DNA of 34,194 nucleotides from a virus (IMGVR_UViG_2778261184_000007:1-34194), one strand, 5' to 3'; shown: positions 1-14,518, counted from the first letter of the stretch. Numbers and translations: made by a program. Notes: generated by a model not told the origin, from the sequence alone.

Positions 1-50
1 TCTTCAGATATGTTATGAACGCACAGAAAGAGCATTAAGTTACATTGATG

Positions 51-1427
51 TTACCCAACAGAGGTTGACTCAAACATAGAAAAAATTAACCCTTTACCTT
101 CGCCAAACTCAGTCTCAATTTCATCAGAAACGGCAGATAAAATGCTACGCAGATCGACATCTCCGCCGCCGAACATATCGCCTAACGCTTGTTGTTGGTG
201 AATAAGTTCATCGTTAATTTTTTGCGCCAGTTTCTTGAAAGCGGCCCCCATTCGCTTAGCGCTTCGGTTGTTGGCAACAATAAACAGAGCAAGCGCTTCT
301 GCTTCCGGAGTGCTATCTCCAAACAATCCACGCTGTGCGATCACCTCTTCTACTGCCTGACCGTTATCTTTTGCTTCACGAACAAGGTTAATTGCTTCCT
401 GGAGTGCTGCTATCGCCTGTGTATCCAGGCCATTAACCTGCTCTATACCGTCCACTAAGCCTGTTACTGCGTCATGGTGAGCGTCGCCAGACAGCGACTG
501 CATTTGCGCAAAATCGCTGGCTGCCGTATTTAATGCGGTCAGGATATTACGCATTTCCGGATCTGGCTCTTCCGACACTAGCCGAACAAGCCTTTCATCC
601 TTGTACGCTTTGGCAAAAATTGCATTCTGGATGCGATCGATAAGCTGTTTCGTGGGACGCCCATCGGCAGTAAGCAAGCCTGCCGTCGCTGTATCGCCAA
701 TTTCGCGCAAAAACGCACGAATAAACGCATCATTGGACCGCGCCAGCAGATTTCCATCATCTGAAGGATTAAATAGCGCCATGACGCTCTCAGTGAGAAA
801 TTGCGCATCCGCATACGCTTTTTCACTTGCTGCCATCTCTTGCAGATCGCTAATGTTTGAATCGCGGGCAAATTGAGCGCGGTCTACATCTGTGAGTCTT
901 TCTCGCACTAGTACGGGCATAGACATTTGCGAAATTTCGTCAGGATTCAGACCAAACTCTTTCGCATGGTCGATCAGGTACTGGCGATACTCATCCGCCT
1001 GTCCTTGCTCATAGGCACGCCAGATACCCATACTCCTTCCGTTGCCGGATTCAACAACGTTGTCCGGACCAACTATCGGCGCTCCGTGGCTGCTCATACC
1101 GGAATCCGTTAATTGTGCCGGGCGTAAATTGGAGGCAATACGGTTAACCTGGAGTTTGCTGGATAGCCGGGTACGATCTCGTGGTTGGAGTTCTTCCGGG
1201 AAGGCCGGGTTAATCATACCGTCAAGGTTGTTCGAAATGATCAGACTGCTGGCATCAACGACCTTAAAAGCCGTCTTTACCTCTGCACCTTTGCTGGTGA
1301 CTACGTAGCTACTTCGCCCCAGGCGTGTTTCTTTCCTCTCTAATGAAGAAACCAGAGCAATGACGCTGTTAATATCTGCGGCCTCGGAAAGCGCAGAAGT
1401 AACTGATTTGTTCAAAATACACTCCAA
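51..1427 (-). CDS. 458-aa protein, distal gene of the dar-type (capsid-associated antirestriction) gene string; function not assignable
   Basis: Complete ORF with stop at 51-53; same strand and immediately downstream of the darA-like/ddrA-like genes; no recognisable catalytic motif. Preceded by a hairpin at 1485-1507. Confidence 0.5.
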   Translation of the reverse strand: MECILNKSVTSALSEAADINSVIALVSSLERKETRLGRSSYVVTSKGAEVKTAFKVVDASSLIISNNLDGMINPAFPEELQPRDRTRLSSKLQVNRIASNLRPAQLTDSGMSSHGAPIVGPDNVVESGNGRSMGIWRAYEQGQADEYRQYLIDHAKEFGLNPDEISQMSMPVLVRERLTDVDRAQFARDSNISDLQEMAASEKAYADAQFLTESVMALFNPSDDGNLLARSNDAFIRAFLREIGDTATAGLLTADGRPTKQLIDRIQNAIFAKAYKDERLVRLVSEEPDPEMRNILTALNTAASDFAQMQSLSGDAHHDAVTGLVDGIEQVNGLDTQAIAALQEAINLVREAKDNGQAVEEVIAQRGLFGDSTPEAEALALFIVANNRSAKRMGAAFKKLAQKINDELIHQQQALGDMFGGGDVDLRSILSAVSDEIETEFGEGKGLIFSMFESTSVG

Positions 1428-1484
1428 CTATAGAGAAAGCTGTGAGTGTAAAAAGAGTGTGATTTATGTGAGAACAGAGAAGTG

Positions 1485-1507
1485 AAAGGGGCATTTCGCC
1501 CCCTTTT
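1485..1507 (-). terminator. GC-rich hairpin (GGGGC-loop-GCCCC) between the ddrA-like stop and the next gene; candidate attenuator or bidirectional terminator
   Basis: Inverted repeat AAAGGGGC/GCCCCCTTT with 5-nt loop; T-run on the + strand side, U/C-rich on the - strand side. Confidence 0.35.
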
Positions 1508-1509
1508 GA

Positions 1510-1878
1510 TTACCCGGCATAACCGTTGGCTTTCACCCAGCTTATGGTCTGTTCTTTAGCCTGCTCCAACGTAAGGAACTCGCCAACATAGTTTGAGATC
1601 CCACGCAGCGCATCAATAAATTCCATTTGTGTGGACTTTGTGAACACACCGCCCAGGAAGTCAGTCACTATCTTAGGGACTTCATCTACAACAGGATCAG
1701 TCTGTTGTTGCGGTTCCGCTGCCGGTTGCGCGGCAGTCCCCAGGCCCAATTTCAGCATCACATCAACAATCTGCTTACCAATGGTGACGCGTTGCAATAC
1801 TGGCGCAGTTTTCTGCGCCTGCATTAGATCTGATAGCTCTTTACCTAATTTCAGGCGGTCTAAAACAGAGATGGTCAT
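1510..1878 (-). CDS. 122-aa small protein following darA-like gene (DdrA-position)
   Basis: ATG start overlaps the upstream gene stop by 1 nt (TAATG), implying translational coupling within the operon. Confidence 0.5.
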   Translation of the reverse strand: MTISVLDRLKLGKELSDLMQAQKTAPVLQRVTIGKQIVDVMLKLGLGTAAQPAAEPQQQTDPVVDEVPKIVTDFLGGVFTKSTQMEFIDALRGISNYVGEFLTLEQAKEQTISWVKANGYAG

Positions 1879-3803
1879 TAAGCACCTCCCTGCTGAATTT
1901 CAGCCAGAATGTTGATCAGGTAGTCAACTGCTGCACCCACAGTGGCTTCGTTCTCGTCGTATCGACCTGCACTGATTAGAGCATTTGCTGCTTCCTGTAC
2001 ATGATCAAGTTCAGTACTGATGACCGTCAGATCGCGGGATGTAAACTGCTCCGGAACGGATTTCAGGTACTCCAGCGCTTTATCTGCCTCCTGATCAGCT
2101 TCACTTGCTGATTCACCAGCTTCTTCTGGCTCCGGCTCCTGTTCTGTTGCTGGTTGTGGTTGTGATTCCGGCTCAACCACATGCTCTGTTTTTACTTCGA
2201 TTGAATGATTTTGAAGGGCGTTATACACGTCCATAATGAAAAGGTTCTCCCCATCACCAAGTGGATACGCCACGTTTGGAAACGCTTTGCGGAAAAGAAT
2301 TTTCACTTGCGCCTTGAATGTTTTCAGGTCACTGCCAAACAGGTCTACATAGCCATCAATATGTTTCGACATGCTGGACACAACCAATTGGCCTGCAAAA
2401 TCTTTCAGCTCATCTTCATCAGGAAGATAGAGCAACTCGTACTGGCTGACTTCTTCATCTGTCAGTTTACGGTCATACGTAATGATACCGTGACGAGCAT
2501 ATTCGTAATACTGATCAGCCTGGTCAGGACGATCAATCACGGCTTTATTTCCATCCGGCACAGCACCAACACCAGCCGGGCGAGATTGAAGTGCATAGTG
2601 GTATTTACCTACATCCTGGCTCTCTTGTTGTGATACTGGGTTCGTCTCGGGGTCTGTCTGTGGTGGTTCGGAGTCTTCCTGCTGGCCTGGTAACACATCA
2701 ACTTTATATTTATCTGCGTTATGCTCTCGGTAGGCTTTAAGTAATTTGGTTGCAGCATCTGCCAAACTGCCTCCTTTGACAGCACTGGCATCAATACTGA
2801 ATTTACCTTCAGGTGCTACTATCGTAACGAAATTGTCACTGCCGGACGTGACATAATTAACTTCAGCGCCATTATCCAGCACTGTTTTTCCGTCAATGGC
2901 AAGATTATGTTTTACATGTCGCAGCTGGTCACTAAACGCTCGCTCTTTCGTTTTTTCACCTTTAGCAGACAACAATTTATCGCGTTTTGCTTGTAATTCC
3001 TCGTTGATGGCTTTCTGGGCATCAAGTTTTTTTTGCATCTCCGTAAGAGCAGCACGCTTTTCAGTCAGCCCACGTTGCGCAACGTCCACCTGATCAATCA
3101 TTATTGACCGTTCTTCTGCCAGTTTATCTGCTTCATTGAGATAACTCTCAATATCTGCCTTCATTTTGTCCTGGCGCTCTTTTGCTTTCTTAAATTTTTC
3201 GCTGTTACGCTCAATCAAATTAGATAGCGCCTGGCATACCTGGCTTAAAGAAACATCTCTCCCACCAATCGGGGCGACAACGTGAGTTACGTTACGCTTA
3301 TTAAGTAAAAACTGAAATGCAACAAGCTCGTCGTTACTCTTTATTTTTGCCCCGTCAGCTGTTGGAGAGTGGAAAATTATGCTTGTACTCTGCCCGTCAG
3401 TAAGCGGTATCTGCGCGGTCAAAACAGGGATATTAGCTATCCGACGTACACGACCGATAATCGCACCACCAATACAATTACGTCCATTTTCATCGGTCCC
3501 AGCTTCATCAGTCCCTGCCATAATATTCGTACCATTCAGGCCACGATTCAGCGCACGGACGAAAGCTCGCATTGTTTGAGCTAACCGAATTCTGGTTGTA
3601 GTTATGGACTCAAACATAGCTTCGTCAGACACAACCAGAATTTCATTGCCCATATAGGCAAGCTCAATATCTTCTAAGGTCGCCGCCTCAAAAATCAGGT
3701 CATCTTCGTTTAATTCTTCTGAAGACCAGCGACTTGGCATATAGCCGGGGATCGTATCAGCAAAAGTAGACTGAATATTAATTCGTAAAGGATTGTTAAT
3801 CAT
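1878..3803 (-). CDS. darA: DarA-like capsid-internal antirestriction protein (about 641 aa from the ATG with best SD spacing)
   Basis: Large coiled-coil-rich protein in the position expected for darA in P1-family order (lydA-lydB-hdf-darA leftward from cin). Start chosen at the ATG 6 nt after GGAGG; the ORF track extends to 3842 on an alternative start. Assignment by synteny and size, not by alignment. Confidence 0.55.
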   Translation of the reverse strand: MINNPLRINIQSTFADTIPGYMPSRWSSEELNEDDLIFEAATLEDIELAYMGNEILVVSDEAMFESITTTRIRLAQTMRAFVRALNRGLNGTNIMAGTDEAGTDENGRNCIGGAIIGRVRRIANIPVLTAQIPLTDGQSTSIIFHSPTADGAKIKSNDELVAFQFLLNKRNVTHVVAPIGGRDVSLSQVCQALSNLIERNSEKFKKAKERQDKMKADIESYLNEADKLAEERSIMIDQVDVAQRGLTEKRAALTEMQKKLDAQKAINEELQAKRDKLLSAKGEKTKERAFSDQLRHVKHNLAIDGKTVLDNGAEVNYVTSGSDNFVTIVAPEGKFSIDASAVKGGSLADAATKLLKAYREHNADKYKVDVLPGQQEDSEPPQTDPETNPVSQQESQDVGKYHYALQSRPAGVGAVPDGNKAVIDRPDQADQYYEYARHGIITYDRKLTDEEVSQYELLYLPDEDELKDFAGQLVVSSMSKHIDGYVDLFGSDLKTFKAQVKILFRKAFPNVAYPLGDGENLFIMDVYNALQNHSIEVKTEHVVEPESQPQPATEQEPEPEEAGESASEADQEADKALEYLKSVPEQFTSRDLTVISTELDHVQEAANALISAGRYDENEATVGAAVDYLINILAEIQQGGA

Positions 3804-4416
3804 GCTCATCCTCCAGGCGCGCGATTTCTTCTTTAAGAGCACGTGTCTTAGCTACTTCCTGAGACAAGGCAGCTTTAACGTTACCCGTATCTTGCATTAC
3901 TTTGTCTGACTTGCTCTGGAGTTTAGACAGTTTGTCGTTAGCATTAGCGATATCTTCACGGAGTGCATCACGTGATTCTTTCGCTTCAGCTAATTTCTGA
4001 GCGTTAGATTTAACTCCCTGCCGCTTCTTATTTCCGTCATCAATATTTTTTGCTGCACGAGCAAGTTTTCGAGCTAATGACTTCTGGAAAGAAGTTGCTC
4101 CGCGATTAAATAAAGCCGCAAGAGATTGCCCCAAAGCCGACATTGTTTTTACTGGCTTGAACGGTACTGTTTTACCATTCAGTTTGATCCCAGATATATC
4201 ACCGGTATCGTTAACCTGAACTTCCATTGTCTGTTCATCAATACCAATAAGGGTAAACGTGCGCGTCATGATCCCATCTTTCTTCCTGCCATTACTGGCA
4301 GGGATCACCCTCGCTATCTTGTAACCACCTTTGCTGATTTCTTTGACGAGTTTTGCCAGCCCCTTTTCGTTTAACTCATCATAATTAAGAAGAACATAAT
4401 TATTCTTATTTGACAT
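3796..4416 (-). CDS. Hdf-position protein (about 206 aa) with C-terminal coiled coil, in dar-type operon
   Basis: ATG at 4416-4414 preceded by AAGGAG; the ORF track begins earlier on a GTG. Lies between the lydB-like and darA-like genes. Confidence 0.5.
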   Translation of the reverse strand: MSNKNNYVLLNYDELNEKGLAKLVKEISKGGYKIARVIPASNGRKKDGIMTRTFTLIGIDEQTMEVQVNDTGDISGIKLNGKTVPFKPVKTMSALGQSLAALFNRGATSFQKSLARKLARAAKNIDDGNKKRQGVKSNAQKLAEAKESRDALREDIANANDKLSKLQSKSDKVMQDTGNVKAALSQEVAKTRALKEEIARLEDEHD

Positions 4417-4852
4417 CCCAGTCTCCTTCACGCTTTCCGATCGTAAACTGGCGCTCTATGCAGTCATTGATAGGGAAAATGCGATAAAGCGGATTCAGTC
4501 GGCAGTTACCGTTAGTCAATGTGACTTTCAGATCCCACTTCGTTGGCTCAAGATATTTCGTATCGATGAGCAAATACTCTTCTCTCTCACCGCGTTTTGA
4601 GGCGTCAACTGGTCGCGTTTTCCCTGAAATAACCACAGATGGATTTTTCAGGTCTTGCAACCAATATTCGATTTGAGCATTGCTGACCCAGCTTCGCTTA
4701 ACACGTAGCGAAACAGGAAATGCTATAGCGGATTCTTTCACTACAGCGTCACCAATACTCAAAATCTCAACACTCTTGCGACGAAAAATGAAACGGTCAA
4801 TGATGGCAACAAATGCCATGATAAAAATGAAATAATTTCCAAAGTTACCCAT
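4406..4852 (-). CDS. lydB: LydB-like antiholin (148 aa)
   Basis: Follows and overlaps a 3-TM holin-like gene. Size and position match the P1 lydA-lydB pair next to cin as recalled. Confidence 0.5.
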   Translation of the reverse strand: MGNFGNYFIFIMAFVAIIDRFIFRRKSVEILSIGDAVVKESAIAFPVSLRVKRSWVSNAQIEYWLQDLKNPSVVISGKTRPVDASKRGEREEYLLIDTKYLEPTKWDLKVTLTNGNCRLNPLYRIFPINDCIERQFTIGKREGDWDVK

Positions 4853-5178
4853 TATTTCTCTCCACCTTTTCCCCCATTCGCTATTACGCTTAAGAGATTC
4901 AAGACGTTACTAGCTCTGGACTTCAAGCCCTGTAAAATTTCACTACCGTTGTTACTGGCAATCAGAACAACGCAGAAAATGATACCTTCAGGCCATTCTT
5001 GGCTAACCGCCACCCCATACCCCGCAAGCCCGGCTGTTACCGCAGTAAACAATTCACTCGCAAGATTGAGCAGGGACGCAGAAATGCGCCCATCTCTAAC
5101 TCCGAGAAGGAATACGCCGGTTCCACTTAGTAGGGATGTTATGACTACTACAGCCAGATTTTCATAATCTGCAAACAT
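4852..5178 (-). CDS. lydA: LydA-like holin (108 aa, three predicted transmembrane segments)
   Basis: Hydrophobic stretches LAVVVITSLLSGTGVFLLGV, LFTAVTAGLAGYGVAV and IIFCVVLIASN; charged C-terminus. First gene of the leftward operon. Confidence 0.55.
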   Translation of the reverse strand: MFADYENLAVVVITSLLSGTGVFLLGVRDGRISASLLNLASELFTAVTAGLAGYGVAVSQEWPEGIIFCVVLIASNNGSEILQGLKSRASNVLNLLSVIANGGKGGEK

Positions 5179-5281
5179 ACCCCTCCAGAAATAACATCTA
5201 ATGCGCCACTAACTTAGTCAGTTTGTTATTTCCTTACAGGACATCTTCTAGAATCGTATCCTTAGCATACAAGGGAGACAT

Positions 5282-5700
5282 ATGCTTATTGGATACATTC
5301 GCATATCAACAAATGACCAAAACACCGCTTTGCAACGCCCCCTTGAAAGCGCAGGATGTGAGCCAATTTTTGAGGGCAAAGCGAGTGGCAAAAAGGCTGA
5401 ACGCCAAGGGTTAAAAAAGGTTCTGCGTATGTTTTCCAGTGATGAAGCCTTGGTCGTATAGCAGTTAGAGCGGCTTGAGGGCAATTTAGTTGTGCTGCTG
5501 TAATCGCTGCGTGCCAGATGAATAAACCTTCTGAATCCCACTAATTCTATCGACATCTGTACACCAATGCAGCGCTCACGATGCAATTAAGATCAACATT
5601 ACAGGGATGGTTTTCATTAGTGGTCGGTCCGACACAAGATGCATCGAATTGATGCGCCGCGCGATAAGTGTATCTATCCCCTCGAGATAAACTACATCGA
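5282..5700 (+). pseudogene. Decayed serine DNA invertase (Hin/Gin/Cin/Pin family) remnant
   Basis: ATG at 5282 opens MLIGYIRISTNDQNTALQ...ALVV, then an in-frame TAG where the family has Trp (LVVW-KLDRLGRS here reads LVV*QLERLEGN). Further downstream TNSIDICTPMQR (cf. TDSIDTSTPMGR in the intact invertase) appears in a shifted frame. Below the 60-aa ORF-track cutoff. Confidence 0.7.
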
Positions 5701-5713
5701 CGCGGCATTTGTA

Positions 5714-6286
5714 TTACAACTCAGTTTGAGTTTGGCGCTTCTCTACAGGGTGATAACGATAAATCGTCGATACACCGATATCGTAAATAATTGCCAACTG
5801 TTTCCTGCTGTAGCCATTTTCGATCAACCTCGCTATTTGCTCATGTTGTTCTTTTGTCAACTTCGGGCGACGTCCGCCAATGCGTCCCTGTTCGCGTGCA
5901 GCTGCCAGTCCAGCCAGGGTTCTCTCAACAATTAATTCACGTTCCATTTCTGCTAAAGCCCCCATGACGTGAAAAAAGAAACGCCCCATGGGTGTTGAGG
6001 TGTCAATGCTGTCTGTCAGACTACGAAAATTAACACCTTTTTCCCGCAGCTCCTCAATAAGTGTGATCAGGTGTTTCATACTTCTGCCAAGCCTATCCAG
6101 CTTCCAGACAACCAGCGTATCTCCTTCTGATAACGTTCTGAGCAGCTTTTTCAAGCCTGGTCTGGCTGACTTTGTTCCGCTTATTTTATCTTCAAAAATC
6201 AGTTCACATCCTGCGCAGTTCAGTGCATTTCTTTGTAAATCTGTGTTTTGGTCATTTGTTGACACACGAATGTAGCCAATTTGCAT
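5714..6286 (-). CDS. cin: Cin/Min-type serine DNA invertase (190 aa from ATG)
   Basis: MQIGYIRVSTNDQNTDLQRNAL... with catalytic-serine motif, conserved LVVWKLDRLGRS and FFFHVMGALAEMERELI blocks, and C-terminal HTH; SD AAAGAGG upstream of ATG at 6286. The ORF track adds three codons from a TTG. Confidence 0.9.
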   Translation of the reverse strand: MQIGYIRVSTNDQNTDLQRNALNCAGCELIFEDKISGTKSARPGLKKLLRTLSEGDTLVVWKLDRLGRSMKHLITLIEELREKGVNFRSLTDSIDTSTPMGRFFFHVMGALAEMERELIVERTLAGLAAAREQGRIGGRRPKLTKEQHEQIARLIENGYSRKQLAIIYDIGVSTIYRYHPVEKRQTQTEL

Positions 6287-6340
6287 GAAAAACAACCTCT
6301 TTGTTTAGTTAAAAATACATCGTTGGTATAGGTAGGGATT

Positions 6341-6366
6341 AAGACTAAAACGTTGGTTTGGGGGAA
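6341..6366. other. Invertase crossover site 1 (cix/mix-like 26-bp imperfect palindrome), nearest the invertase gene
   Basis: Bottom strand reads TTCCCCCAAACC-AA-CGTTTTAGTCTT; the AAACC..GGTTT core resembles hix/gix/cix half-sites. Confidence 0.7.
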
Positions 6367-6864
6367 GGCTCTGCGCTGCCCGTTGGTGTGCCCGTTCCGT
6401 GGCCCTCAGCCACACCGCCAACGGGATGGCTGAAATGTAACGGAGCAGCATTTTCTGCTGAAGAATACCCAGAACTGGCAAAGGCTTATCCCACCAATAA
6501 ATTACCGGATTTACGCGGTGAGTTTATTCGCGGCTGGGATGACGGACGTGGTGTGGATGCGGGGAGAACAATATTATCCGCTCAAGGTGATGCCATACGT
6601 AATATCTATGGTGAGTTCAGAACTGTAAACACTGAAAATTATTCAATATGGGAATCAGTAGGCTCGTTTAAGGGGGCAGTGGTGCCTTTGAGTCCCTCAA
6701 CGAACAATAGTTATTTCTCCTTAATCAGAAGTATGGTGACAGAAAGAACAGACGGCACTGTTTACCCAAAAGTGATTGGCCTTGATGCTTCAAGAATTGT
6801 TCCAACTGCAAACGAAAACCGCCCACGCAACATTGCGTTTAATTACATCGTAAGAGCCGCATGA
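6358..6864 (+). CDS. Promoterless tail-fibre C-terminal tip cassette 1 (silent in this orientation)
   Basis: Frame opens at the TTG inside the crossover site (no ATG); conserved block GEGSALPVGVPVPWP...GWDDGRGVD, unique centre, conserved end RPRNIAFNYIVRAA. Confidence 0.75.
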   Translation: MGEGSALPVGVPVPWPSATPPTGWLKCNGAAFSAEEYPELAKAYPTNKLPDLRGEFIRGWDDGRGVDAGRTILSAQGDAIRNIYGEFRTVNTENYSIWESVGSFKGAVVPLSPSTNNSYFSLIRSMVTERTDGTVYPKVIGLDASRIVPTANENRPRNIAFNYIVRAA

Positions 6865-6883
6865 AAACGTTGGTTTGGGGGAA
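6858..6883. other. Invertase crossover site 2
   Basis: Same half-site TTCCCCCAAACC-AA-CGTTT on bottom strand, straddling the cassette 1 stop and the cassette 2 TTG. Confidence 0.7.
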
Positions 6884-7342
6884 GGCTCTGCACTGCCCGT
6901 TGGTGTGCCCGTTCCGTGGCCCTTAGAAATACCGCCAACGGGCTGGCTGAAATGTAACGGCGCAGCATTTTCTTCTGAAATGTACCCCAGGCTGGCAAAG
7001 GCTTATCCGACCAATAAATTACCGGATTTACGCGGTGAATTTATCCGTGGCTGGGATGACGGACGGGGCGTTGATAATGGACGCAACCTACTGTCTGCGC
7101 AGTCTGACGCTATTCAGAATATAGTTGGCACTTTTGGGCGTACTCAGCTTTTTAAAGATACGCTGAATTCAGGGCCATTTAGTCAAACTGACTCTATATT
7201 ATCAGTAGGCTTACAACCAACTGAGATCATTGAAGGATATGGTGCTTCTGTATGGACATTCGACGCCTCTCGCTCAGTTCGCACAGCGTCTGAAACACGC
7301 CCCCATAACATTGCGTTTAATTACATCGTAAGGGCGGCATAA
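6875..7342 (+). CDS. Promoterless tail-fibre C-terminal tip cassette 2
   Basis: Same conserved N- and C-terminal blocks with a distinct centre (…NGRNLLSAQSDAIQNIVGTFGRTQLFKDTLNSGPFSQTDSILSVGLQPTEIIEGYGASVWTFDASRSV…). Confidence 0.75.
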   Translation: MGEGSALPVGVPVPWPLEIPPTGWLKCNGAAFSSEMYPRLAKAYPTNKLPDLRGEFIRGWDDGRGVDNGRNLLSAQSDAIQNIVGTFGRTQLFKDTLNSGPFSQTDSILSVGLQPTEIIEGYGASVWTFDASRSVRTASETRPHNIAFNYIVRAA

Positions 7343-7361
7343 AAACGTTGGTTTGGGGGAA
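7336..7361. other. Invertase crossover site 3
   Basis: TTCCCCCAAACC-AA-CGTTTTTATGCC on bottom strand. Confidence 0.7.
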
Positions 7362-7814
7362 GGCTCTGCGCTGCCCGTTGGTGTGCCCGTTCCATGGCCC
7401 TCAGCCACACCGCCAACGGGATGGCTGAAATGTAACGGCGCAGCATTTTCTTCTGAAAAGTACCCAAATCTGGCAAAGGCTTACCCTACTAATAAATTGC
7501 CGGATTTACGCGGTGAATTTATTCGTGGCTGGGATGACGGACGTGGTGTGGATGCCGGGCGACAATTATTATCTTCACAGGGGGATGCAATAAGAAATAT
7601 TGAGGGGTTCGCAGATGGCGGGATTGGCATGTCTTTTGATGCAATCAGAGGGGCTTTTTATGATGCAGGAACACGATCTGCGAGAATGCCGAATAACACA
7701 ACTGATATAGGCAAAACCGATGACCTTGGATTCGACGCCTCTCGTGTCGTGCCAACAGCTAATGAAAACCGTCCTCGTAATATTGCCTTTAATTATATTG
7801 TGAGGGCGGCATAA
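7353..7814 (+). CDS. Promoterless tail-fibre C-terminal tip cassette 3
   Basis: Conserved ends, unique centre. Confidence 0.75.
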   Translation: MGEGSALPVGVPVPWPSATPPTGWLKCNGAAFSSEKYPNLAKAYPTNKLPDLRGEFIRGWDDGRGVDAGRQLLSSQGDAIRNIEGFADGGIGMSFDAIRGAFYDAGTRSARMPNNTTDIGKTDDLGFDASRVVPTANENRPRNIAFNYIVRAA

Positions 7815-7833
7815 AAACGTTGGTTTGGGAGAA
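7808..7833. other. Invertase crossover site 4
   Basis: Same motif with one substitution in the conserved half (GGGAGAAGG instead of GGGGGAAGG). Confidence 0.65.
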
Positions 7834-8301
7834 GGCTCGGCGCTGCCCGTTGGTGTGCCTGTTCCATGGCCCTCAGCCACGCCGCCAACGGGGTGGCTGA
7901 AATGTAACGGTGCAGCATTTTCTTCTGAAATGTACCCCAATCTGGCAAAGGCCTACCCCACCAATAAATTACCGGATTTACGCGGTGAATTTATCCGTGG
8001 CTGGGATGACGGACGAGGCGTTGATGCTGGACGTGCTTTATTGAGCATTCAGACTGGGATGCTGGAAAAACATCGCCATATTGTTGTTGCCAACGATGGG
8101 TATGATTCAAAAGAGGAATGGGAACTGGCGACAATCTTCAGAAGAGCATACACGCAAGGCCGGGGGCTTGATGCTGCTGATGTCGGAGGGACTCTGATTC
8201 CATCACCAACGCTTCATTCACGAGGAAGTATTGGTAACACAGGTGGTAGTGAAACCCGCCCCCGCAATATTGCATTTAACTATATCGTGAGGGCGGCTTA
8301 G
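7825..8301 (+). CDS. Promoterless tail-fibre C-terminal tip cassette 4
   Basis: Conserved ends, unique centre; converges on the chaperone gene with a 6-bp gap. Confidence 0.75.
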   Translation: MGEGSALPVGVPVPWPSATPPTGWLKCNGAAFSSEMYPNLAKAYPTNKLPDLRGEFIRGWDDGRGVDAGRALLSIQTGMLEKHRHIVVANDGYDSKEEWELATIFRRAYTQGRGLDAADVGGTLIPSPTLHSRGSIGNTGGSETRPRNIAFNYIVRAA

Positions 8302-8307
8302 TTATAT

Positions 8308-8919
8308 TCAACTGGCTGATGCCAGTGGTATTTCCGGCAAGTTGATATCTGGTGCCATGTTTATATCCATTGCGTTCAGCGCGTCTATATAATCCAGCAC
8401 GGCATTAAGCCGGGTGGTTTCTGCCTGCGTCAACTTCCGCCCGGCCCGCAACTTCAACTGAATCAGACTTATGGAATCCATTGCCGCATCAGCCAGTGAC
8501 TGGCGCTTGGTTTCTGCCGCTTCTACTGCGGCACGATGTTGTGCCTCAGTATCTGTCACCCATTTTTCACCATCCCATTTATCGTATGGTGTTAACGGGG
8601 CGATAGTGGTTGTATTTTTCGGGTAGTCACCCAGCGCCGTGATTTCTTCGGTGTTTCCCGTGTCAGTGCTATAGACGGTTTCACCACGATGGTCTGGCGC
8701 ATACTCCCATGAATTTAAATCCTCCGAACGGCGAATAGCATAGCCAGATTTATGTGCGCCTGGGGCATCTAAACAGGAATTAGCCGGAATACCAACACCC
8801 ACAGCAAGATATTCAGTTGACTCTGAAATATATTCCCGTGTCTCACCATCATAGTTATAAACGATGATGTTTCCTGCCTGTACGGCAATAAGATCATTAT
8901 TTAATATCGCGTTATTCAT
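8308..8919 (-). CDS. Tail-fibre assembly chaperone (Tfa/U-like, 203 aa)
   Basis: N-terminal region typical of Mu/P1 U and lambda Tfa-type proteins (…YDGETREYISESTEYLAVGVGIPANS…); ATG overlaps the stop of the preceding cassette by 1 nt. Confidence 0.65.
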   Translation of the reverse strand: MNNAILNNDLIAVQAGNIIVYNYDGETREYISESTEYLAVGVGIPANSCLDAPGAHKSGYAIRRSEDLNSWEYAPDHRGETVYSTDTGNTEEITALGDYPKNTTTIAPLTPYDKWDGEKWVTDTEAQHRAAVEAAETKRQSLADAAMDSISLIQLKLRAGRKLTQAETTRLNAVLDYIDALNAMDINMAPDINLPEIPLASAS

Positions 8920-9377
8920 TATGCGGCTCTCACAATATAATTGAAGGCAATATTGCGTGGACGGGTTTCATTCCCCCCTGAGGATTCCGTTCTGTATTGA
9001 CTGGAAAATTTACCATTAATCGCCCCTCCCTGGACGGCGTTATCTGTCGACAACAGACTATCCCCCCCTCTGTCATTTGGCACCAATACCGTGTTATCCC
9101 ACGCGTCCCATGACCGAATATTATGATAATGACTTCCAGTTAACCACCCCTGTATGCTTAAGATGCCCCTTCCCGCATCCACCCCGCGCCCATCATCCCA
9201 ACCGCGAATAAATTCTCCCCGTAAATCCGGTAATTTATTAGTGGGGTAAACCTTTGCCAGATTTGGGTACTTTTCAGAAGAAAATGCTGCTCCGTTACAT
9301 TTTAGCCAGCCCGTTGGTGGTGTTTCTAAGGGCCACGGAACGGGCACGCCAACGGGCAATGCTGAGCCTTCCCCCAA
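8919..9377 (-). CDS. Promoterless tail-fibre C-terminal tip cassette 5 (minus orientation, between the expressed tip and the chaperone)
   Basis: Begins at the TTG within crossover site 5; conserved N block, unique centre (…WLTGSHYHNIRSWDAWDNTVLVPNDRGGDS…), conserved RPRNIAFNYIVRAA end. Confidence 0.75.
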   Translation of the reverse strand: MGEGSALPVGVPVPWPLETPPTGWLKCNGAAFSSEKYPNLAKVYPTNKLPDLRGEFIRGWDDGRGVDAGRGILSIQGWLTGSHYHNIRSWDAWDNTVLVPNDRGGDSLLSTDNAVQGGAINGKFSSQYRTESSGGNETRPRNIAFNYIVRAA

Positions 9378-9394
9378 ACCAACGTTTCTATGCC
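9369..9394. other. Invertase crossover site 5 (inverted relative to sites 1-4)
   Basis: Top strand TTCCCCCAAACC-AA-CGTTTCTATGCC. Confidence 0.7.
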
Positions 9395-11694
9395 GCTCTT
9401 ACGATGTAATTAAATGCAATATTACGCGGACGAGCTGATACATAAGCCCACCAGTCATATTTTTGGGCACCTTTACTGGATGCATCAAATATCCACTTTT
9501 TGCCATTTATGGCCCCCCATTGATTAGAGGTTAAAGTGTCACCAAATCCGTATTGTGGTGAGCTGAGTGAACTGATATCCCCAGTATCATTATCATCAAA
9601 ACCGGAGACGATAGTGCCTTCCTGAAATGAAAGTATCTCTCGTCCTGCATCAATACCTCGTCCGTCATCCCAGCCACGGATAAATTCGCCCCGTAAATCC
9701 GGTAATTTATTGGTCGGATAAGCCTTTGCCAGTCTGGGGTACATTTCAGAAGAAAATGCTGCTCCGTTACATTTCAGCCATCCCGTTGGCGGTGTGGCTG
9801 AGGGCCATGGAACGGGCACACCAACGGGCAGCGCAGAGCCTTCCCCCAAACCAAGGTAATCAAGAACGCCCTGAGTGCTGGTTTTACCAAGAATGGCACG
9901 CCCAACACTTGTCAACGCGGTTAACGCGGCACGATCTTCCCCTGTAAAATATGGGAGTTTATCTGCTGATGTAGCAAGCTCTGCCAGCGCCGTCAGGGTG
10001 GCATCCTTCGGTTGCTTACCCGCAAGCGCGTTAGTCATGGTGGTCGCAAAATTCGGGTCGTTGCCCAGCGCCGCCGCTAACTCGTTCAGCGTATTCAGTG
10101 CGTCAGGCGACGAGTCTACAAGTGCGGCAATCGCGGCCATAACGAAAGCCGTGCTTGCGATCTGGGTATTATTAGTCCCCTGTGGCGCTGTTGGTGTTGT
10201 TGGCGTTCCGGTCAGTGCCGGGCTGTTTAATGGTGCTTTCTTGTTCGTTTCATCCATTACCGCCTTAACAGCTTTTGGTGTCGCTGCCAGCGTTTCAGAC
10301 GTGCTGTTCGTGGCGCTACTAAGCTGAACTATCCCTTTTTGTGCCGTCGTAGCGTCCTGTGCTGTGTATTTGCCATTAGCAAGATCATACGCTGCCTTAA
10401 CTGCCTTAGGCGTTGCTGCAAGAGTTTCAGACGAGCTGTTGATGGCACTACTAAGTTGTACAATGCCGCTCTGAGTGAGGCTGGCTGCTGGTACGTCGGT
10501 AATCTGGCTCCAAGGGTGGTTATGGCTGGCGTTGGCACACTCTGCAAAGCGAGCACTTAACCAGGAACTCAACCAACCGTCTCCCCACTGACTGCCATAC
10601 ACATCACCACCGGTGCTATAACGTGCATCCCCTATCAGAAGCTCTTTTAATGAGGTAATACTTCTTTCCGTGAAAAGGAACACACGCTGGCCGTTGGCGA
10701 ACACGGACAATGCGCCGTCTCCTTCATGTTTAATTCCGGTATCGTCATCGCCCAGCGTCAGAGAGTTCCCCCCCAGTCTGTTGTTGGTATTGATGCCGAA
10801 TGCAGAGGTCTGCGGCAGATTAAGTTTACCTGTCATAGTGTCGCCATCTTTGGCAACTTTTTCTCCAATCAGGCGAGTCACTGTCGCGGAAAAGTTCGGA
10901 TCATTACCAAGCGCGGCGGCCAGTTCGTTCAGAGTGTTAAGTGCGTCAGGCGATGAGTCTACAAGTTCAGCAATCGCAGCCATAACGAAAGCTGTGCTTG
11001 CGATCTGAGTGTTATTCGTTCCCTTAGTCGCCGTTGGTGCTGTTGGCGTCCCTGTCAGATTCGGGCTGTTGATCGGGGCTTTTGTATCAACCAAATCATG
11101 GAGAGTTTTGACAGCCAGAGGTGTAGCCGCTTTTCTTTCTTCTGTACTGCTTATTTCATTAGAGAATTCGACACCAACAGCACGGTTAACCCGGTATTTA
11201 AGCACAATCATTTCTTTAGTCACAGCCGTTGCGCCGCTAGGCACGATAACTCGACATAATTCAATTTGATTCTGCCCAATAGTATTGTCCGTACGCGCGT
11301 AAATTCTTGCAGCACTGACAGAAGATGCGCTATCTACCTGTGTCGTTTTTACACCATGTTCAAAATTGGCTTCCAGCACAATAATGTTGGTAGCCCCTGC
11401 CTTTACCGAGACAGTCACATCTTCTATTTGCTGAACGGATATCTGAACATTATTTACATCTACTGAAGCAGCCCCTTTACCTTCTGAGTTTTCAGAAGTT
11501 ATACGGACACTCAACCCTGTGCCGGGAACCGGTTCAAATCCACAGTAAAAGCCAGGCAAAACAATATTTTTAAGTTTTCTGTTAAGAGCCGAACTACTAT
11601 AGAGTTCGAAATATTGAACATCAGCAAGCAACGGCTGTGAGACACCAGAGGATAGTGTCATTATGTTGTTCGTTTTATCAGCACCCATAATCAA
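9388..11694 (-). CDS. Tail fibre protein (S-like, 768 aa): constant N-terminal part fused to the currently expressed variable tip
   Basis: Repeated fibre motifs (GIVQLSS..NS.SETLAATPKAVKA three times; NTLNELAAALGNDPNF twice); C-terminal 150 aa carry the same conserved blocks as the cassettes; ATGA overlap with the upstream R-like gene. Confidence 0.85.
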   Translation of the reverse strand: MIMGADKTNNIMTLSSGVSQPLLADVQYFELYSSSALNRKLKNIVLPGFYCGFEPVPGTGLSVRITSENSEGKGAASVDVNNVQISVQQIEDVTVSVKAGATNIIVLEANFEHGVKTTQVDSASSVSAARIYARTDNTIGQNQIELCRVIVPSGATAVTKEMIVLKYRVNRAVGVEFSNEISSTEERKAATPLAVKTLHDLVDTKAPINSPNLTGTPTAPTATKGTNNTQIASTAFVMAAIAELVDSSPDALNTLNELAAALGNDPNFSATVTRLIGEKVAKDGDTMTGKLNLPQTSAFGINTNNRLGGNSLTLGDDDTGIKHEGDGALSVFANGQRVFLFTERSITSLKELLIGDARYSTGGDVYGSQWGDGWLSSWLSARFAECANASHNHPWSQITDVPAASLTQSGIVQLSSAINSSSETLAATPKAVKAAYDLANGKYTAQDATTAQKGIVQLSSATNSTSETLAATPKAVKAVMDETNKKAPLNSPALTGTPTTPTAPQGTNNTQIASTAFVMAAIAALVDSSPDALNTLNELAAALGNDPNFATTMTNALAGKQPKDATLTALAELATSADKLPYFTGEDRAALTALTSVGRAILGKTSTQGVLDYLGLGEGSALPVGVPVPWPSATPPTGWLKCNGAAFSSEMYPRLAKAYPTNKLPDLRGEFIRGWDDGRGIDAGREILSFQEGTIVSGFDDNDTGDISSLSSPQYGFGDTLTSNQWGAINGKKWIFDASSKGAQKYDWWAYVSARPRNIAFNYIVRAA
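9841..9866. other. Invertase crossover site 6, inside the expressed tail-fibre gene at the constant/variable junction
   Basis: Top strand TTCCCCCAAACC-AA-GGTAATCAAGAA: conserved half-site intact, other half diverged because it is constrained by coding sequence (…DYLGLGEGS…). Confidence 0.65.
10050..10225. repeat. Intragenic direct repeat copy A within the tail-fibre gene (about 175 bp)
   Basis: Roughly 85% identical to 10890-11065 by eye; encodes the duplicated …NTQIASTAFVMAAIA.LVDSSPDALNTLNELAAALGNDPNF… block. Confidence 0.7.
10890..11065. repeat. Intragenic direct repeat copy B within the tail-fibre gene
   Basis: Partner of the 10050-10225 copy. Confidence 0.7.
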
Positions 11695-12137
11695 CCCTCA
11701 ACTTGCTCGATTGTCATGAGAATACTGTAACGTTTACCTTTATAGAGGGTGTCTTGCTGGGTGCAAAGCACAGCAAAAGCCTGTTCCTCAGCATCCACAA
11801 GCACAAGCGTGTTAAAGTCGTAAGGCGTGTTATCCGGCATTCTTTCTTGAGGGAAGGCTGCATTGATAGTGATAATCCCATCCACACTGGACAATATCAG
11901 ATCGGACACAGCAAACTGTTGAGCGTTACTCAATTTAAAATCGAGTGGAATGTCCGCTATATTCCAGCCTCCTGCACCATTAGCAGTTACCAGACTAGAT
12001 TTGCACCAATACGCCTTAGAGATAACAAAACGCGCACCTTTGCCGATCGCCGACTCAGCGCGGCGTGAATAATAGTAGGAAAGCAATTGCGCCTTATACA
12101 GGCGGTTACCATCTCTTGCCTTTAAATTTTCAGCCAT
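11691..12137 (-). CDS. Tail-fibre-associated structural protein (R-position, 148 aa)
   Basis: Immediately upstream of and translationally coupled to the tail-fibre gene; assignment by synteny only. Confidence 0.45.
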   Translation of the reverse strand: MAENLKARDGNRLYKAQLLSYYYSRRAESAIGKGARFVISKAYWCKSSLVTANGAGGWNIADIPLDFKLSNAQQFAVSDLILSSVDGIITINAAFPQERMPDNTPYDFNTLVLVDAEEQAFAVLCTQQDTLYKGKRYSILMTIEQVEG

Positions 12138-12202
12138 ACGAACATAGCCCCTTCATAAGCAATGAACCAATGGAGAGTATGCTCAGTTTGTGATTTCCGT
12201 TG

Positions 12203-12228
12203 TTCTTCCCCCGCATTTGGGGGAAGAA
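12203..12228. other. Perfect 10-bp-stem hairpin between the gp16-like and R-like genes
   Basis: TTCTTCCCCC-GCATTT-GGGGGAAGAA; no convincing U-tract on the minus transcript, so more likely an RNA processing/stability element than a strong terminator. Confidence 0.35.
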
Positions 12229-12231
12229 TTA

Positions 12232-13087: not shown

Positions 13088-14518
13088 TTACGGGTAAGAA
13101 ATGCTGAACGTGGAAGATTTCACGTCAAGATAAATGAAGTCATTAAAGTAAACTGCATCTTTCATATTTTGTATTGTTATGTCATAAGAGAGAAACATAT
13201 CCAGCGATTCTATTACTCGCCAAATATCTTTAACTTTTACCTGTGCATAACATTGCTGAGAATCATCATCACTCTGTAGTAATAAACTAAATGATGACGA
13301 ATCACGACCAAAATTATCTTCCAATGCTGCTTTAATAGCATTTTGAGCGTCGTCTATCAGAACATTTTTACGTGCAATACCTGTAAAATTTATAGTAAAT
13401 GGCTGTTCATTTGTATCTACATACTCGAACCGCTTGTTCAACTCATTTGGAACATTCTCTAGAGCTTTCAGTATTTCTGATTTTAGCTGAGCCTGGCTTA
13501 CACCCGGCTTATGTCCGCAAAAGAAAATTTTGTTGATGTTTCGAACGTCAAACCCAGTTATTTTCTCTTGTAACGCTTCGCCCCAAACGTTCAACCATGA
13601 AGTTCCATGAACAACATTCTGAATGAATTGGCGATAATCACCGCCCCATACCACTTGTTCATCGTATGCAACATAATACTGAGCACGATTTCGAGTTTCT
13701 TCTGTAGTTTCCATACCACTACCACCGGTAATGATCGAATCAGTTTTAAACTCAAGTGACTCCACATATTGAGCGATATTTCCAGCCGGTTCTAACTTTT
13801 GTCCTTCAGCCAAAGTATAGTCGCCAAGGCTAGCCATAACATCGATTCGAACCTGACAGCCTGCTGGAGGCATCATACCCATAGAACCATCACCAAACTT
13901 GACTCCAAGTTGTTCTGTAGGTTTATATGCCAATGAATAGTGCTTACTCTTGTCTCTGGACATTCTAAATAATGGGTTATATGTCCATTTTTCTTCTACG
14001 CCATCTGTAATAACATAAACATCCAGGCTAGAGACTTCTTTTGTTAACTCTCTGGAAAGCAACAATGTCAGAAATAAAGTTTCCTTCTCAATATCAAATG
14101 TAACGCTAACAGCTTCATGCTGTTTAGTTTCTACGCCAGAAACAGTTCCTCCAGCAGGAATTACAACACTGTTAATAATTGCCAAAGGTGTTTGGTCATT
14201 GGCAAGCAATTCAGCCCCGGCTGGTAATGTAATATCCCGATCAGTTTTATTGGTTATAGACGTTGTTCCGTATGAAGCACTAACAAATCGCCCTACGTAG
14301 CTACGGTCTTCAGCAACCGCTAAAATACTTGAGCGGCGCGTAGCCGTTGAAATAAGTCCCTCAGTGAGGCCGCGGCTTGCAAATGTACGGGCAATATAAA
14401 TAAGCTGTGATCCGAATATAGCGTGCATCTGCACAAACTGACTATTTACAAATCGTGACCACCATGTGTTTTCATTTAACTTAGCGTTAAATTTGTCCAG
14501 TAATTCTGTAATCGTCAC
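13088..14518 (-). CDS. Baseplate protein (BplA-position, 476 aa)
   Basis: Synteny; overlaps the upstream gene by 4 nt. Confidence 0.4.
   Translation of the reverse strand: MTITELLDKFNAKLNENTWWSRFVNSQFVQMHAIFGSQLIYIARTFASRGLTEGLISTATRRSSILAVAEDRSYVGRFVSASYGTTSITNKTDRDITLPAGAELLANDQTPLAIINSVVIPAGGTVSGVETKQHEAVSVTFDIEKETLFLTLLLSRELTKEVSSLDVYVITDGVEEKWTYNPLFRMSRDKSKHYSLAYKPTEQLGVKFGDGSMGMMPPAGCQVRIDVMASLGDYTLAEGQKLEPAGNIAQYVESLEFKTDSIITGGSGMETTEETRNRAQYYVAYDEQVVWGGDYRQFIQNVVHGTSWLNVWGEALQEKITGFDVRNINKIFFCGHKPGVSQAQLKSEILKALENVPNELNKRFEYVDTNEQPFTINFTGIARKNVLIDDAQNAIKAALEDNFGRDSSSFSLLLQSDDDSQQCYAQVKVKDIWRVIESLDMFLSYDITIQNMKDAVYFNDFIYLDVKSSTFSISYP

Follow-up and report, generated by a model that had tools for sequence, protein, structure and literature searches.

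The closest described relative of the locus treated here is Min, the multiple-inversion system of plasmid p15B from Escherichia coli 15T-, which was reportedly characterised by Sandmeier, Iida and Arber between 1990 and 1992 and for which Sandmeier et al. are said to have given 240 isomers in 1991. In p15B, six sites are spread over ~3.5 kb and a constant 5′ part of the fibre gene is joined to one of six 3′ ends; the Min-type invertase lies beside the array, and a truncated second invertase, the psi-win remnant, adjoins min. Systems of this class, described around 1990 and hence known for about 35 years, are very common in E. coli, and the present analysis leaves the knowledge of the mechanism unchanged. 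The DNA analysed here is a viral stretch of 34,194 nt (IMGVR_UViG_2778261184_000007:1-34194), referred to as the window, which corresponds to the entire contig NLVY01000052.1 of assembly GCA_002511845.1. Its tail-fibre region very probably holds a multiple DNA-inversion system of the Min type (p15B class), by which a D6-like plasmid prophage sets its host range.

The organisation described for p15B recurs in the window, where a Din-family invertase adjoins an array of more than two sites in both orientations, one of which lies in the fibre gene, and where the architecture again allows 240 isomers. According to notes in the P1 GenBank record, p15B carries 16-R-S, min, a cin-like remnant and lydA in this order over 8.3 kb; the window has the same order and span, with lydA, a truncated invertase, the invertase, the array, the fibre gene, R and 16 as landmarks. 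The two differ in their backbones, which are P1-like/IncY in p15B and D6-like here, in the origin of the remnant invertase, which in the window, unlike in p15B, derives from D6 cin, and in the length of the six alternative fibres (765–781 aa against 739–762 aa for p15B). They also differ in their cassettes, with tip types T3, T13, T5, T4, T1 and T14 in the window compared to T12, T7, T9, T6, T10, T4, T2, T1 and T5 in the p15B-like plasmid pMCR_SCKP-LL83. The invertible region of this plasmid is 99% identical to p15B min (PMC5786510), and it is by way of this proxy that the window's invertase was identified as Min or a close orthologue.

The two-state switches of P1, D6 and Mu resemble the system in the window in that Cin and Gin are Din-family serine invertases which act on 26-bp sites of 12-2-12 geometry, with AA as the core of cix, and switch the C-terminus of a fibre; in P1 the enhancer is, in addition, annotated inside the 5′ end of cin. 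D6 carries a C segment like that of P1, switching between two states, together with cin, two cix sites and S/U plus S′/U′. However, the C segment of P1 and D6 and the G segment of Mu each comprise two sites and one segment with two states, and their tips are long (~500 aa in P1/D6, ~330 aa in Mu), each with its own tail-fibre assembly gene (tfa; U/U′), whereas the window has six sites, six short tips and a single tfa, the product of which is 23–27% identical to U/U′. The shufflon of R64/IncI1 plasmids likewise uses several invertible segments to provide alternative C-termini for one adhesin gene, pilV. It differs in relying on the tyrosine recombinase Rci, asymmetric 19-bp sfx sites and a conjugative pilus tip, whereas in the window a phage fibre is the target and the enzyme combines a Resolvase with an HTH_7 domain.

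A smaller system of closely similar build is found in a P2-like prophage of enteropathogenic E. coli E2348/69, for which sequencing reads and polymerase chain reaction revealed a shufflon with three repeats, four variants and three C-termini (Goldberg et al. 2014, PMC4272514). Among the related loci that were collected, L022 probably represents this shufflon, judging from its site count and from inversion sizes (~2.0 and 1.56 kb) in no more than rough agreement with the published 'around 2.2 and 1.8 kb'. L022 shares the head half-site and the core with the window, its fibre-side site is identical to site 6 at 26 of 26 positions, its invertase and Tfa are 95% and 96% identical, respectively, and it also combines a two-headed tfa segment with a single-cassette segment. 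The differences lie in its three sites, its one single-cassette segment with the resulting four variants and three C-termini, and its location in a chromosomal P2-like prophage.

The six 26-bp sites of the window all have the 12-2-12 geometry and an AA core, four of them on the minus and two on the plus strand, and a search with the 12-mer recovered each of them at the position and in the orientation given in a preliminary description of the region. With up to two mismatches the head 12-mer occurs eight times, compared to 2.5 ± 1.7 times in shuffled sequences, and none of 100 shuffles reached eight. Site 1 (6341–6366, minus strand; TTCCCCCAAACC-AA-CGTTTTAGTCTT) forms the outer boundary on the invertase side, and its tail half CGTTTTAGTCTT is non-coding. 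In site 2 (6858–6883, minus strand) the tail half, CGTTTTCATGCG, contains the stop codon of cassette A; site 3 (7336–7361, minus strand) has the tail half CGTTTTTATGCC, which is shared by site 4 (7808–7833, minus strand; TTCTCCCAAACC-AA-CGTTTTTATGCC) together with a variant head half, TTCTCCCAAACC. The stop codon of the expressed fibre gene lies within the tail half of site 5 (9369–9394, plus strand; CGTTTCTATGCC), and site 6 (9841–9866, plus strand; tail half GGTAATCAAGAA) sits inside the fibre gene at the constant/variable junction, between ...LDYL and GLGEG... The preliminary description had named a failure to align with known crossover sites as grounds for rejecting its reading, but the sites do align: they have the same geometry and core as cixL/cixR (TTCTCTTAAACC-AA-GGTTTAGGATTG / GGTATTGGATAA) and the same 12-2-12 geometry as gix (TTCCTGTAAACC-GA-GGTTTTGGATAA).

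Every related array is closed by two special sites, one with a non-coding tail half beside the invertase and one in the constant part of the fibre gene, and at the inner sites the tail half holds the stop codon of the preceding cassette. The type represented by site 1 is also terminal in the arrays of D6-like and P1-like relatives and in the P2-like locus L012; other chromosomal prophages have a terminal variant, CGTTTTCGTCTT/CGTTTTCGTTTT. In locus L006 (GCA_900604155.1, 822-kb contig, 4446–9480) both terminal sites read CTTCCCCAAACC, with one C fewer in the run, and the first and last cassettes are frameshifted, which reflects either homopolymer sequencing errors or a decaying array.

Each site heads an in-frame block of 153–169 aa that starts with GLGEGSALPVG from the core and contains a Pfam tail-collar domain (six of six blocks). 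A mutual alignment of the six tips gave mean identities of 94% over the first 68 aa, 91% over the last 16 aa and 29% in the centres, in agreement with the blocks of shared ends and differing centres noted earlier; cassette B ends with RPHNIAFNYIVRAA and the others with RPRNIAFNYIVRAA. From the core onwards all six are free of stop codons for 153–169 codons, the chance of which is ~6e-4 each. Five of the cassettes are silent. Cassettes A (6355–6864; type T3, 169 aa), B (6872–7342; T13, 156 aa, in frame from its site), C (7350–7814; T5, 154 aa) and D (7822–8301; T4, 159 aa) are on the plus strand, where the centre of A is 98% identical to T3 of L002, L005 and L007, the centre of C is 100% identical to T5 of L005–L007, and D converges with tfa with no site between them. 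Cassette E (8919–9380, minus strand; T1, 153 aa) lies directly upstream of tfa (8308–8919, minus strand; 203 aa, Caudo_TAP E 2e-31), the sole tfa in the array. The expressed tip F (9388–9852, minus strand; T14, 154 aa) forms the current C-terminus of the fibre.

Beside the array lies the gene for a serine DNA invertase of 190 aa (5714–6286, minus strand; ATG at 6286 and a GAGG Shine–Dalgarno (SD) motif). The protein is intact, with a Resolvase domain (E 2e-51), an HTH_7 domain and Ser9, and aligns end to end (185 residues) with the Gin structures 4m6f (E 4e-92) and 3uj3. It is 100% identical to the enzyme of Salmonella plasmid CP123702, 99.5% to 'pin' of pMCR_SCKP-LL83, 95% to those of two chromosomal P2-like prophages and 73% to P1 Cin, Mu Gin and D6 Cin, and exactly the same protein was found on 698 contigs. 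Because it is 99.5% identical to the pMCR_SCKP-LL83 enzyme, which serves as the proxy, but only 73% to Cin and Gin, the invertase is, by these identities, a Min-type member of the Din family; the earlier label of an intact Cin-type invertase thus holds with regard to intactness, whereas 'Cin-type' is right at the family level only. A presumed recombinational enhancer (Fis-binding region; 6197–6268, minus strand) was located by homology to the annotated P1 cin enhancer and corresponds to nt 19–90 of the gene. Nucleotides 25–95 of the invertase gene (71 nt) are 83.1% identical to P1, the P1 GenBank record gives its cin enhancer region as 83% identical, without gaps, to p15B nt 6463–6533, and over its first 150 nt, which include the enhancer region, the gene shows 100% identity with that of pMCR_SCKP-LL83. 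Inversion would be expected to depend on Fis and the enhancer.

In the mechanism proposed here, the invertase, presumably together with host Fis bound at the enhancer in the 5′ end of its own gene, would act on two inverted sites, with staggered cuts at the 2-bp AA/TT core of the 26-bp sites and flipping of the intervening DNA. An inversion involving site 6 would place another tip, in frame, behind the 612 aa of the constant fibre part, since every cassette starts at the same core and in the same frame. The sites delimit five segments, four of which hold a single cassette (A, B, C or F); the fifth is two-headed, with E-tfa facing D. A breadth-first simulation of all inversions between inverted sites, starting from the state of the window, yielded exactly 240 arrangements within at most six steps, which equals 4! 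x 5 x 2; the formula gives four arrangements for one single-cassette segment, in agreement with the four variants published for E2348/69. In the simulated states A, B, C and F are each fused to the constant part 48 times, and D and E 24 times each. The invertase, the layout and the number of isomers all favour multiple inversion of the p15B Min class over a two-state C or G segment, as had been proposed for the region before.

Rearrangement is visible in related arrays, among which the orientation of tfa relative to the fibre gene varies (17 arrays). A P2-like prophage beside yehR, at the same site in the mouse E. coli strains 8178, DEF10 and DEF2, has an invertase 95% identical to that of the window and contains three inter-core segments (470, 437 and 1610 bp) that are 100.000% identical in all three strains. 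These occur in the orders s1+s2+s3+, s1+s3-s2- and s2+s3-s1-, and the first two are related by one inversion between inverted sites. For the DEF10/DEF2 pair, the exchange at the fibre-side and invertase-side junctions falls within -1 to +40 of the core, and the interval at the inner sites, read by eye, is narrower. Polymorphisms at +40, +58 and +70 stay with their cassette in every case. Such core-exact permutation of identical segments is the outcome expected from conservative site-specific recombination. Three assemblies of strain 8178 were considered as isomers within one strain, but all three have one and the same arrangement. Likewise, the plasmid pPEC399_3 (L015, NZ_JBXSEY010000004.1), which matches the expressed tip at 100%, was discarded as an isomer on account of its different array with two tfa genes. 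It is D6-like, 99.7% identical to the window up to site 1, and carries the same tip T14 on a shorter fibre as well as a tip with a gp53-like domain; given the two tfa genes and the gp53-like tip, Min-type and other tip modules therefore mix in one array.

It could be argued that the array, although built in the manner of Min, no longer inverts in this phage, for instance owing to an inactive enhancer or a lack of invertase expression, and that the silent tips are dead cargo. The array is known from one contig of this isolate, the region assembled as one contig, which a highly mixed population might have prevented, the neighbouring copy of an invertase gene has already decayed, and the psi-win enhancer of p15B was reported to be inactive. 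A relic of this kind nevertheless seems unlikely in view of a full-length invertase whose identical copies occur on many plasmids, six identical cores with conserved half-sites, open frames in five of five silent cassettes, an enhancer region without a single difference from that of the p15B-min-like gene, and close relatives that demonstrably permute.

A second possibility is that the cassettes are shuffled by RecA-dependent exchange between their conserved 5′ blocks (~200–300 bp, 84–92% identical), and not by the invertase. The cassettes do form long inverted repeats (217–283 nt), and the range of three to nine cassettes among relatives needs events beyond inversion. Yet exchange over 200 bp of imperfect homology would give chimeric 5′ blocks, whereas the identical segments of 8178, DEF10 and DEF2 are cut at the cores, with the measured exchange confined to the interval given above and the three flanking polymorphisms moving with their cassette throughout, and we therefore regard this explanation as very improbable.

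Regarding expression, the sole 'start' in the five silent blocks is a TTG inside the crossover site, and no SD motif was found in them. Duplex energies with the anti-SD sequence ranged from +0.4 to -4.8 kcal/mol for these blocks, compared to -6.1 to -7.1 kcal/mol for the starts of the fibre, R and invertase genes, which carry GAGG or AAGG motifs; the earlier statement that the spare blocks lack an ATG and an SD motif is thereby confirmed. That the five blocks are instead separate genes for small tail proteins translated from TTG is hardly credible, and the least probable of these explanations, even though gene callers annotate coding sequences ('phage tail protein', 152–168 aa) in every related record, given that four of the blocks point against the late operon with a promoter signal not above chance, that in the expressed tip the fibre frame runs on through this very 5′ sequence, and that the same cassette is fused in some relatives and free in others.

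Site-specific inversion of the Min type thus remains the preferred explanation, but some observations weigh against it. An exact look-up found the cassette B protein, the 766-aa fused fibre and this particular combination of tips on this contig only, and since no other contig carries the array, we infer inversion in this isolate from its relatives and its intact parts. The identification with Min, made by comparison of sequences, draws on a proxy plasmid, on the P1 GenBank annotations, and on the figure of 240 isomers and the psi-win remnant of p15B. Moreover, the expression logic is incomplete: in the simulation tfa is co-oriented with the fibre gene in 120 of the 240 isomers, none of which has tip D fused, and a search for a promoter that would read tfa from the invertase side gave nine sigma-70-like matches compared to 10.6 in shuffled sequences. 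The nonamer ACAAACTGA, searched for as a tfa promoter on the invertase side, has copies in promoter position only before R and lydA. Complete assemblies do show a D-type fusion with tfa in the opposite direction.

The ATG of tfa overlaps the stop codon of cassette E (TAATG), its own SD motif is weak, and T1 lies directly upstream of tfa in 13 of 13 arrays. As to how tfa is used, most tips may need no co-expressed Tfa, Tfa may be supplied in trans, or half of the isomers may be defective. D6-like plasmids, P2-like prophages and a Mu-like prophage all encode an identical 203-aa Tfa, the gene lying within a multi-site array every time (L005–L014), which indicates recent exchange of the module between unrelated myovirus lineages. 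We put forward, tentatively and with some doubt, that tfa is not a general chaperone, reflecting either two classes of tips or an on/off gate, and that this Tfa, together with at least 14 shared tip types, makes up a portable module. If this is correct, five of the six tips would fold without co-expressed Tfa, and one array would hold two tip classes; alternatively, half of the isomers would give fibre-defective virions, and the switch would double as an on/off gate. The identical Tfa and the tip pool would, furthermore, circulate among D6-, P1-, P2- and Mu-like phages as a host-range module. A structure search returned no solved structure of a Tfa.

The carrier of the array was identified by nucleotide comparison. 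Phage D6 is 98.3% identical and colinear across 96% of window positions 10000–34194, at least 80% of which is also covered in 77 plasmids, and 96.5% identical and colinear over positions 1–5576, with the homology stopping ~306 nt into D6 cin. As this colinearity extends over structural, lysis and plasmid-maintenance genes, the window is, on this evidence, a D6-like phage-plasmid of E. coli, and its backbone is neither that of P1 nor that of p15B. Homology to D6 restarts at 10998, within the fibre gene. Because it breaks at 5576 and restarts at this point, the 5.4 kb between the two positions are a Min module that was substituted for the two-state C segment of D6, and the replacement contains another invertase, the array of six sites and the distal portion of the constant fibre. 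No record in the collections of plasmids, phages and complete E. coli genomes holds at least 80% of positions 5200–10000 in one place, and 2246 of 5426 complete E. coli genomes show matches to parts of the region.

The left junction of the module retains traces of the exchange. A truncated invertase pseudogene (5282–5576, plus strand), recognised by colinear homology to D6, represents the 5′ ~300 nt of a D6-type cin; its 59-codon open reading frame (5282–5461) has a Pfam Resolvase match and ends at a premature stop, and its enhancer region has a 3-nt deletion. From its position and sequence, this stump, which is analogous to psi-win of p15B, is a remnant of the replacement of the D6 C segment by the Min module. 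Neither the stump nor the single tfa inside the invertible region figured in the preliminary description. Exactly at the junction with the stump lies the decayed 3′ end of a tip cassette (5567–5649, minus strand; ...FDASCVGPTTNENHPCNVDLNCIVSAA), detected as an inverted repeat and by translation of its reading frame and alignment to the end of cassette C. The same cassette relic is present in four other D6-like Min plasmids (L002, L007, L013 and L015) and absent from the P1-like pMCR_SCKP-LL83; as it is common to other D6-like carriers of the module, the swap is old in the D6-like lineage. The cin sequence beside the cassette relic, CATCTGTACACC-AA, resembles a gix half-site (8 of 12 positions, compared by eye), but relative to a clean site-specific event the junction between module and stump is offset by 8 nt.

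In total, 14 tip types were distinguished across 14 arrays, with three to nine per array. Type T14, the expressed tip of the window, was detected, chiefly within chromosomal prophages, in 466 of 5426 complete E. coli genomes, while T13 (cassette B) matches in 98 of the 5426 genomes, with 95–99% identity in 34 records, and the other four types of the window have centres 88–100% identical to those in sampled loci. By these matches, none of the six tip types is new, all of them recurring in other E. coli genomes, contrary to the suggestion in the preliminary description that the tips might be unknown.

Structural comparison gives an indication of how the tips may be built. The T4 gp37 tip (2xgf) matches the collar region of the cassettes (residues 6–70) and their C-terminal NIAFNYIVR motif (...NIAFNYIVR.A), and with the short tail fibre 9cuy the alignment extends across the entire cassette and takes in the GDAIRNI and FDAS...RP.NIA motifs. 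The gp37 needle is far longer than the cassettes, and T4 works without inversion. According to Bartual et al. 2010, the gp37 chain reportedly runs out to the tip and back, with both ends building the collar, which would explain conserved ends around a variable, receptor-binding centre. On this reading the tips encoded in the window are small versions of a T4 gp37-type fibre end; their collar is built from the conserved N-terminal 68 aa together with the C-terminal RPRNIAFNYIVRAA, the variable centre of 60–85 aa would bind the receptor, and they probably differ in receptor specificity. An HxH motif (HYH, HAH or HRH), as in metal-binding fibre tips, occurs in T1, T2, T4, T7 and T8 (window 8060–8075 and 9130–9145, and related loci), and QGDAIRNI.G...FDASR, as in the solved fibre 9cuy, in T3, T5, T9 and T13; the centre of T14 has neither an HxH nor a QGDAIRNI-type motif.

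For annotation, the analysis implies that what are recorded as separate 'phage tail protein' genes are one variable fibre gene with six alternative ends, next to an invertase that public records label generically as 'recombinase family protein'. The Min module itself behaves as a portable unit, having replaced the two-state switch of D6 and sharing identical parts with P2-like and Mu-like prophages. Phage-plasmids of the D6-like and P1-like kinds disseminate resistance genes in E. coli and Salmonella, and a 240-state switch bears on the range over which such an element can travel.

The fibre gene (9388–11688, minus strand; 766 aa from its ATG, with a GAGG SD motif) consists of the constant part and tip F, and its product has three Phage_fiber_2 repeats and a Collar domain. 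Direct repeats of 80% identity within the constant part (10033–10239 and 10876–11082; 10262–10335 and 10394–10467) correspond to the three Phage_fiber_2 repeats. In the related plasmid pMTY1586_untypable1 (L021) extra copies of the repeat are present in a fibre of 960 aa, and fibre length therefore varies with the number of repeats. Upstream lies a homologue of gene R (11691–12137, minus strand; PF26881, Phage_P1_tail_fiber_R), the first gene of the fibre operon, placed as in P1 and D6.

Between genes 16 and R, a perfect hairpin, CTTCCCCC-AAATG-CGGGGGAAG, spans 12205–12230. A half-site-like match at 12214–12225 was considered as a seventh crossover site and rejected, as it is one arm of this hairpin, which looks more like a stem-loop terminator or an RNA element than a crossover site. 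The nonamer ACAAACTGA occurs as an exact candidate late-promoter box upstream of R (12183–12191, minus strand) and before lydA (5218–5226, minus strand), and a third exact copy at 14433 (plus strand) lies inside a gene. The first two copies occupy the positions of the late promoters LPs and LPdar in P1 (-22 box AAGTTACTT), and by analogy ACAAACTGA may be a D6-type late-promoter box.

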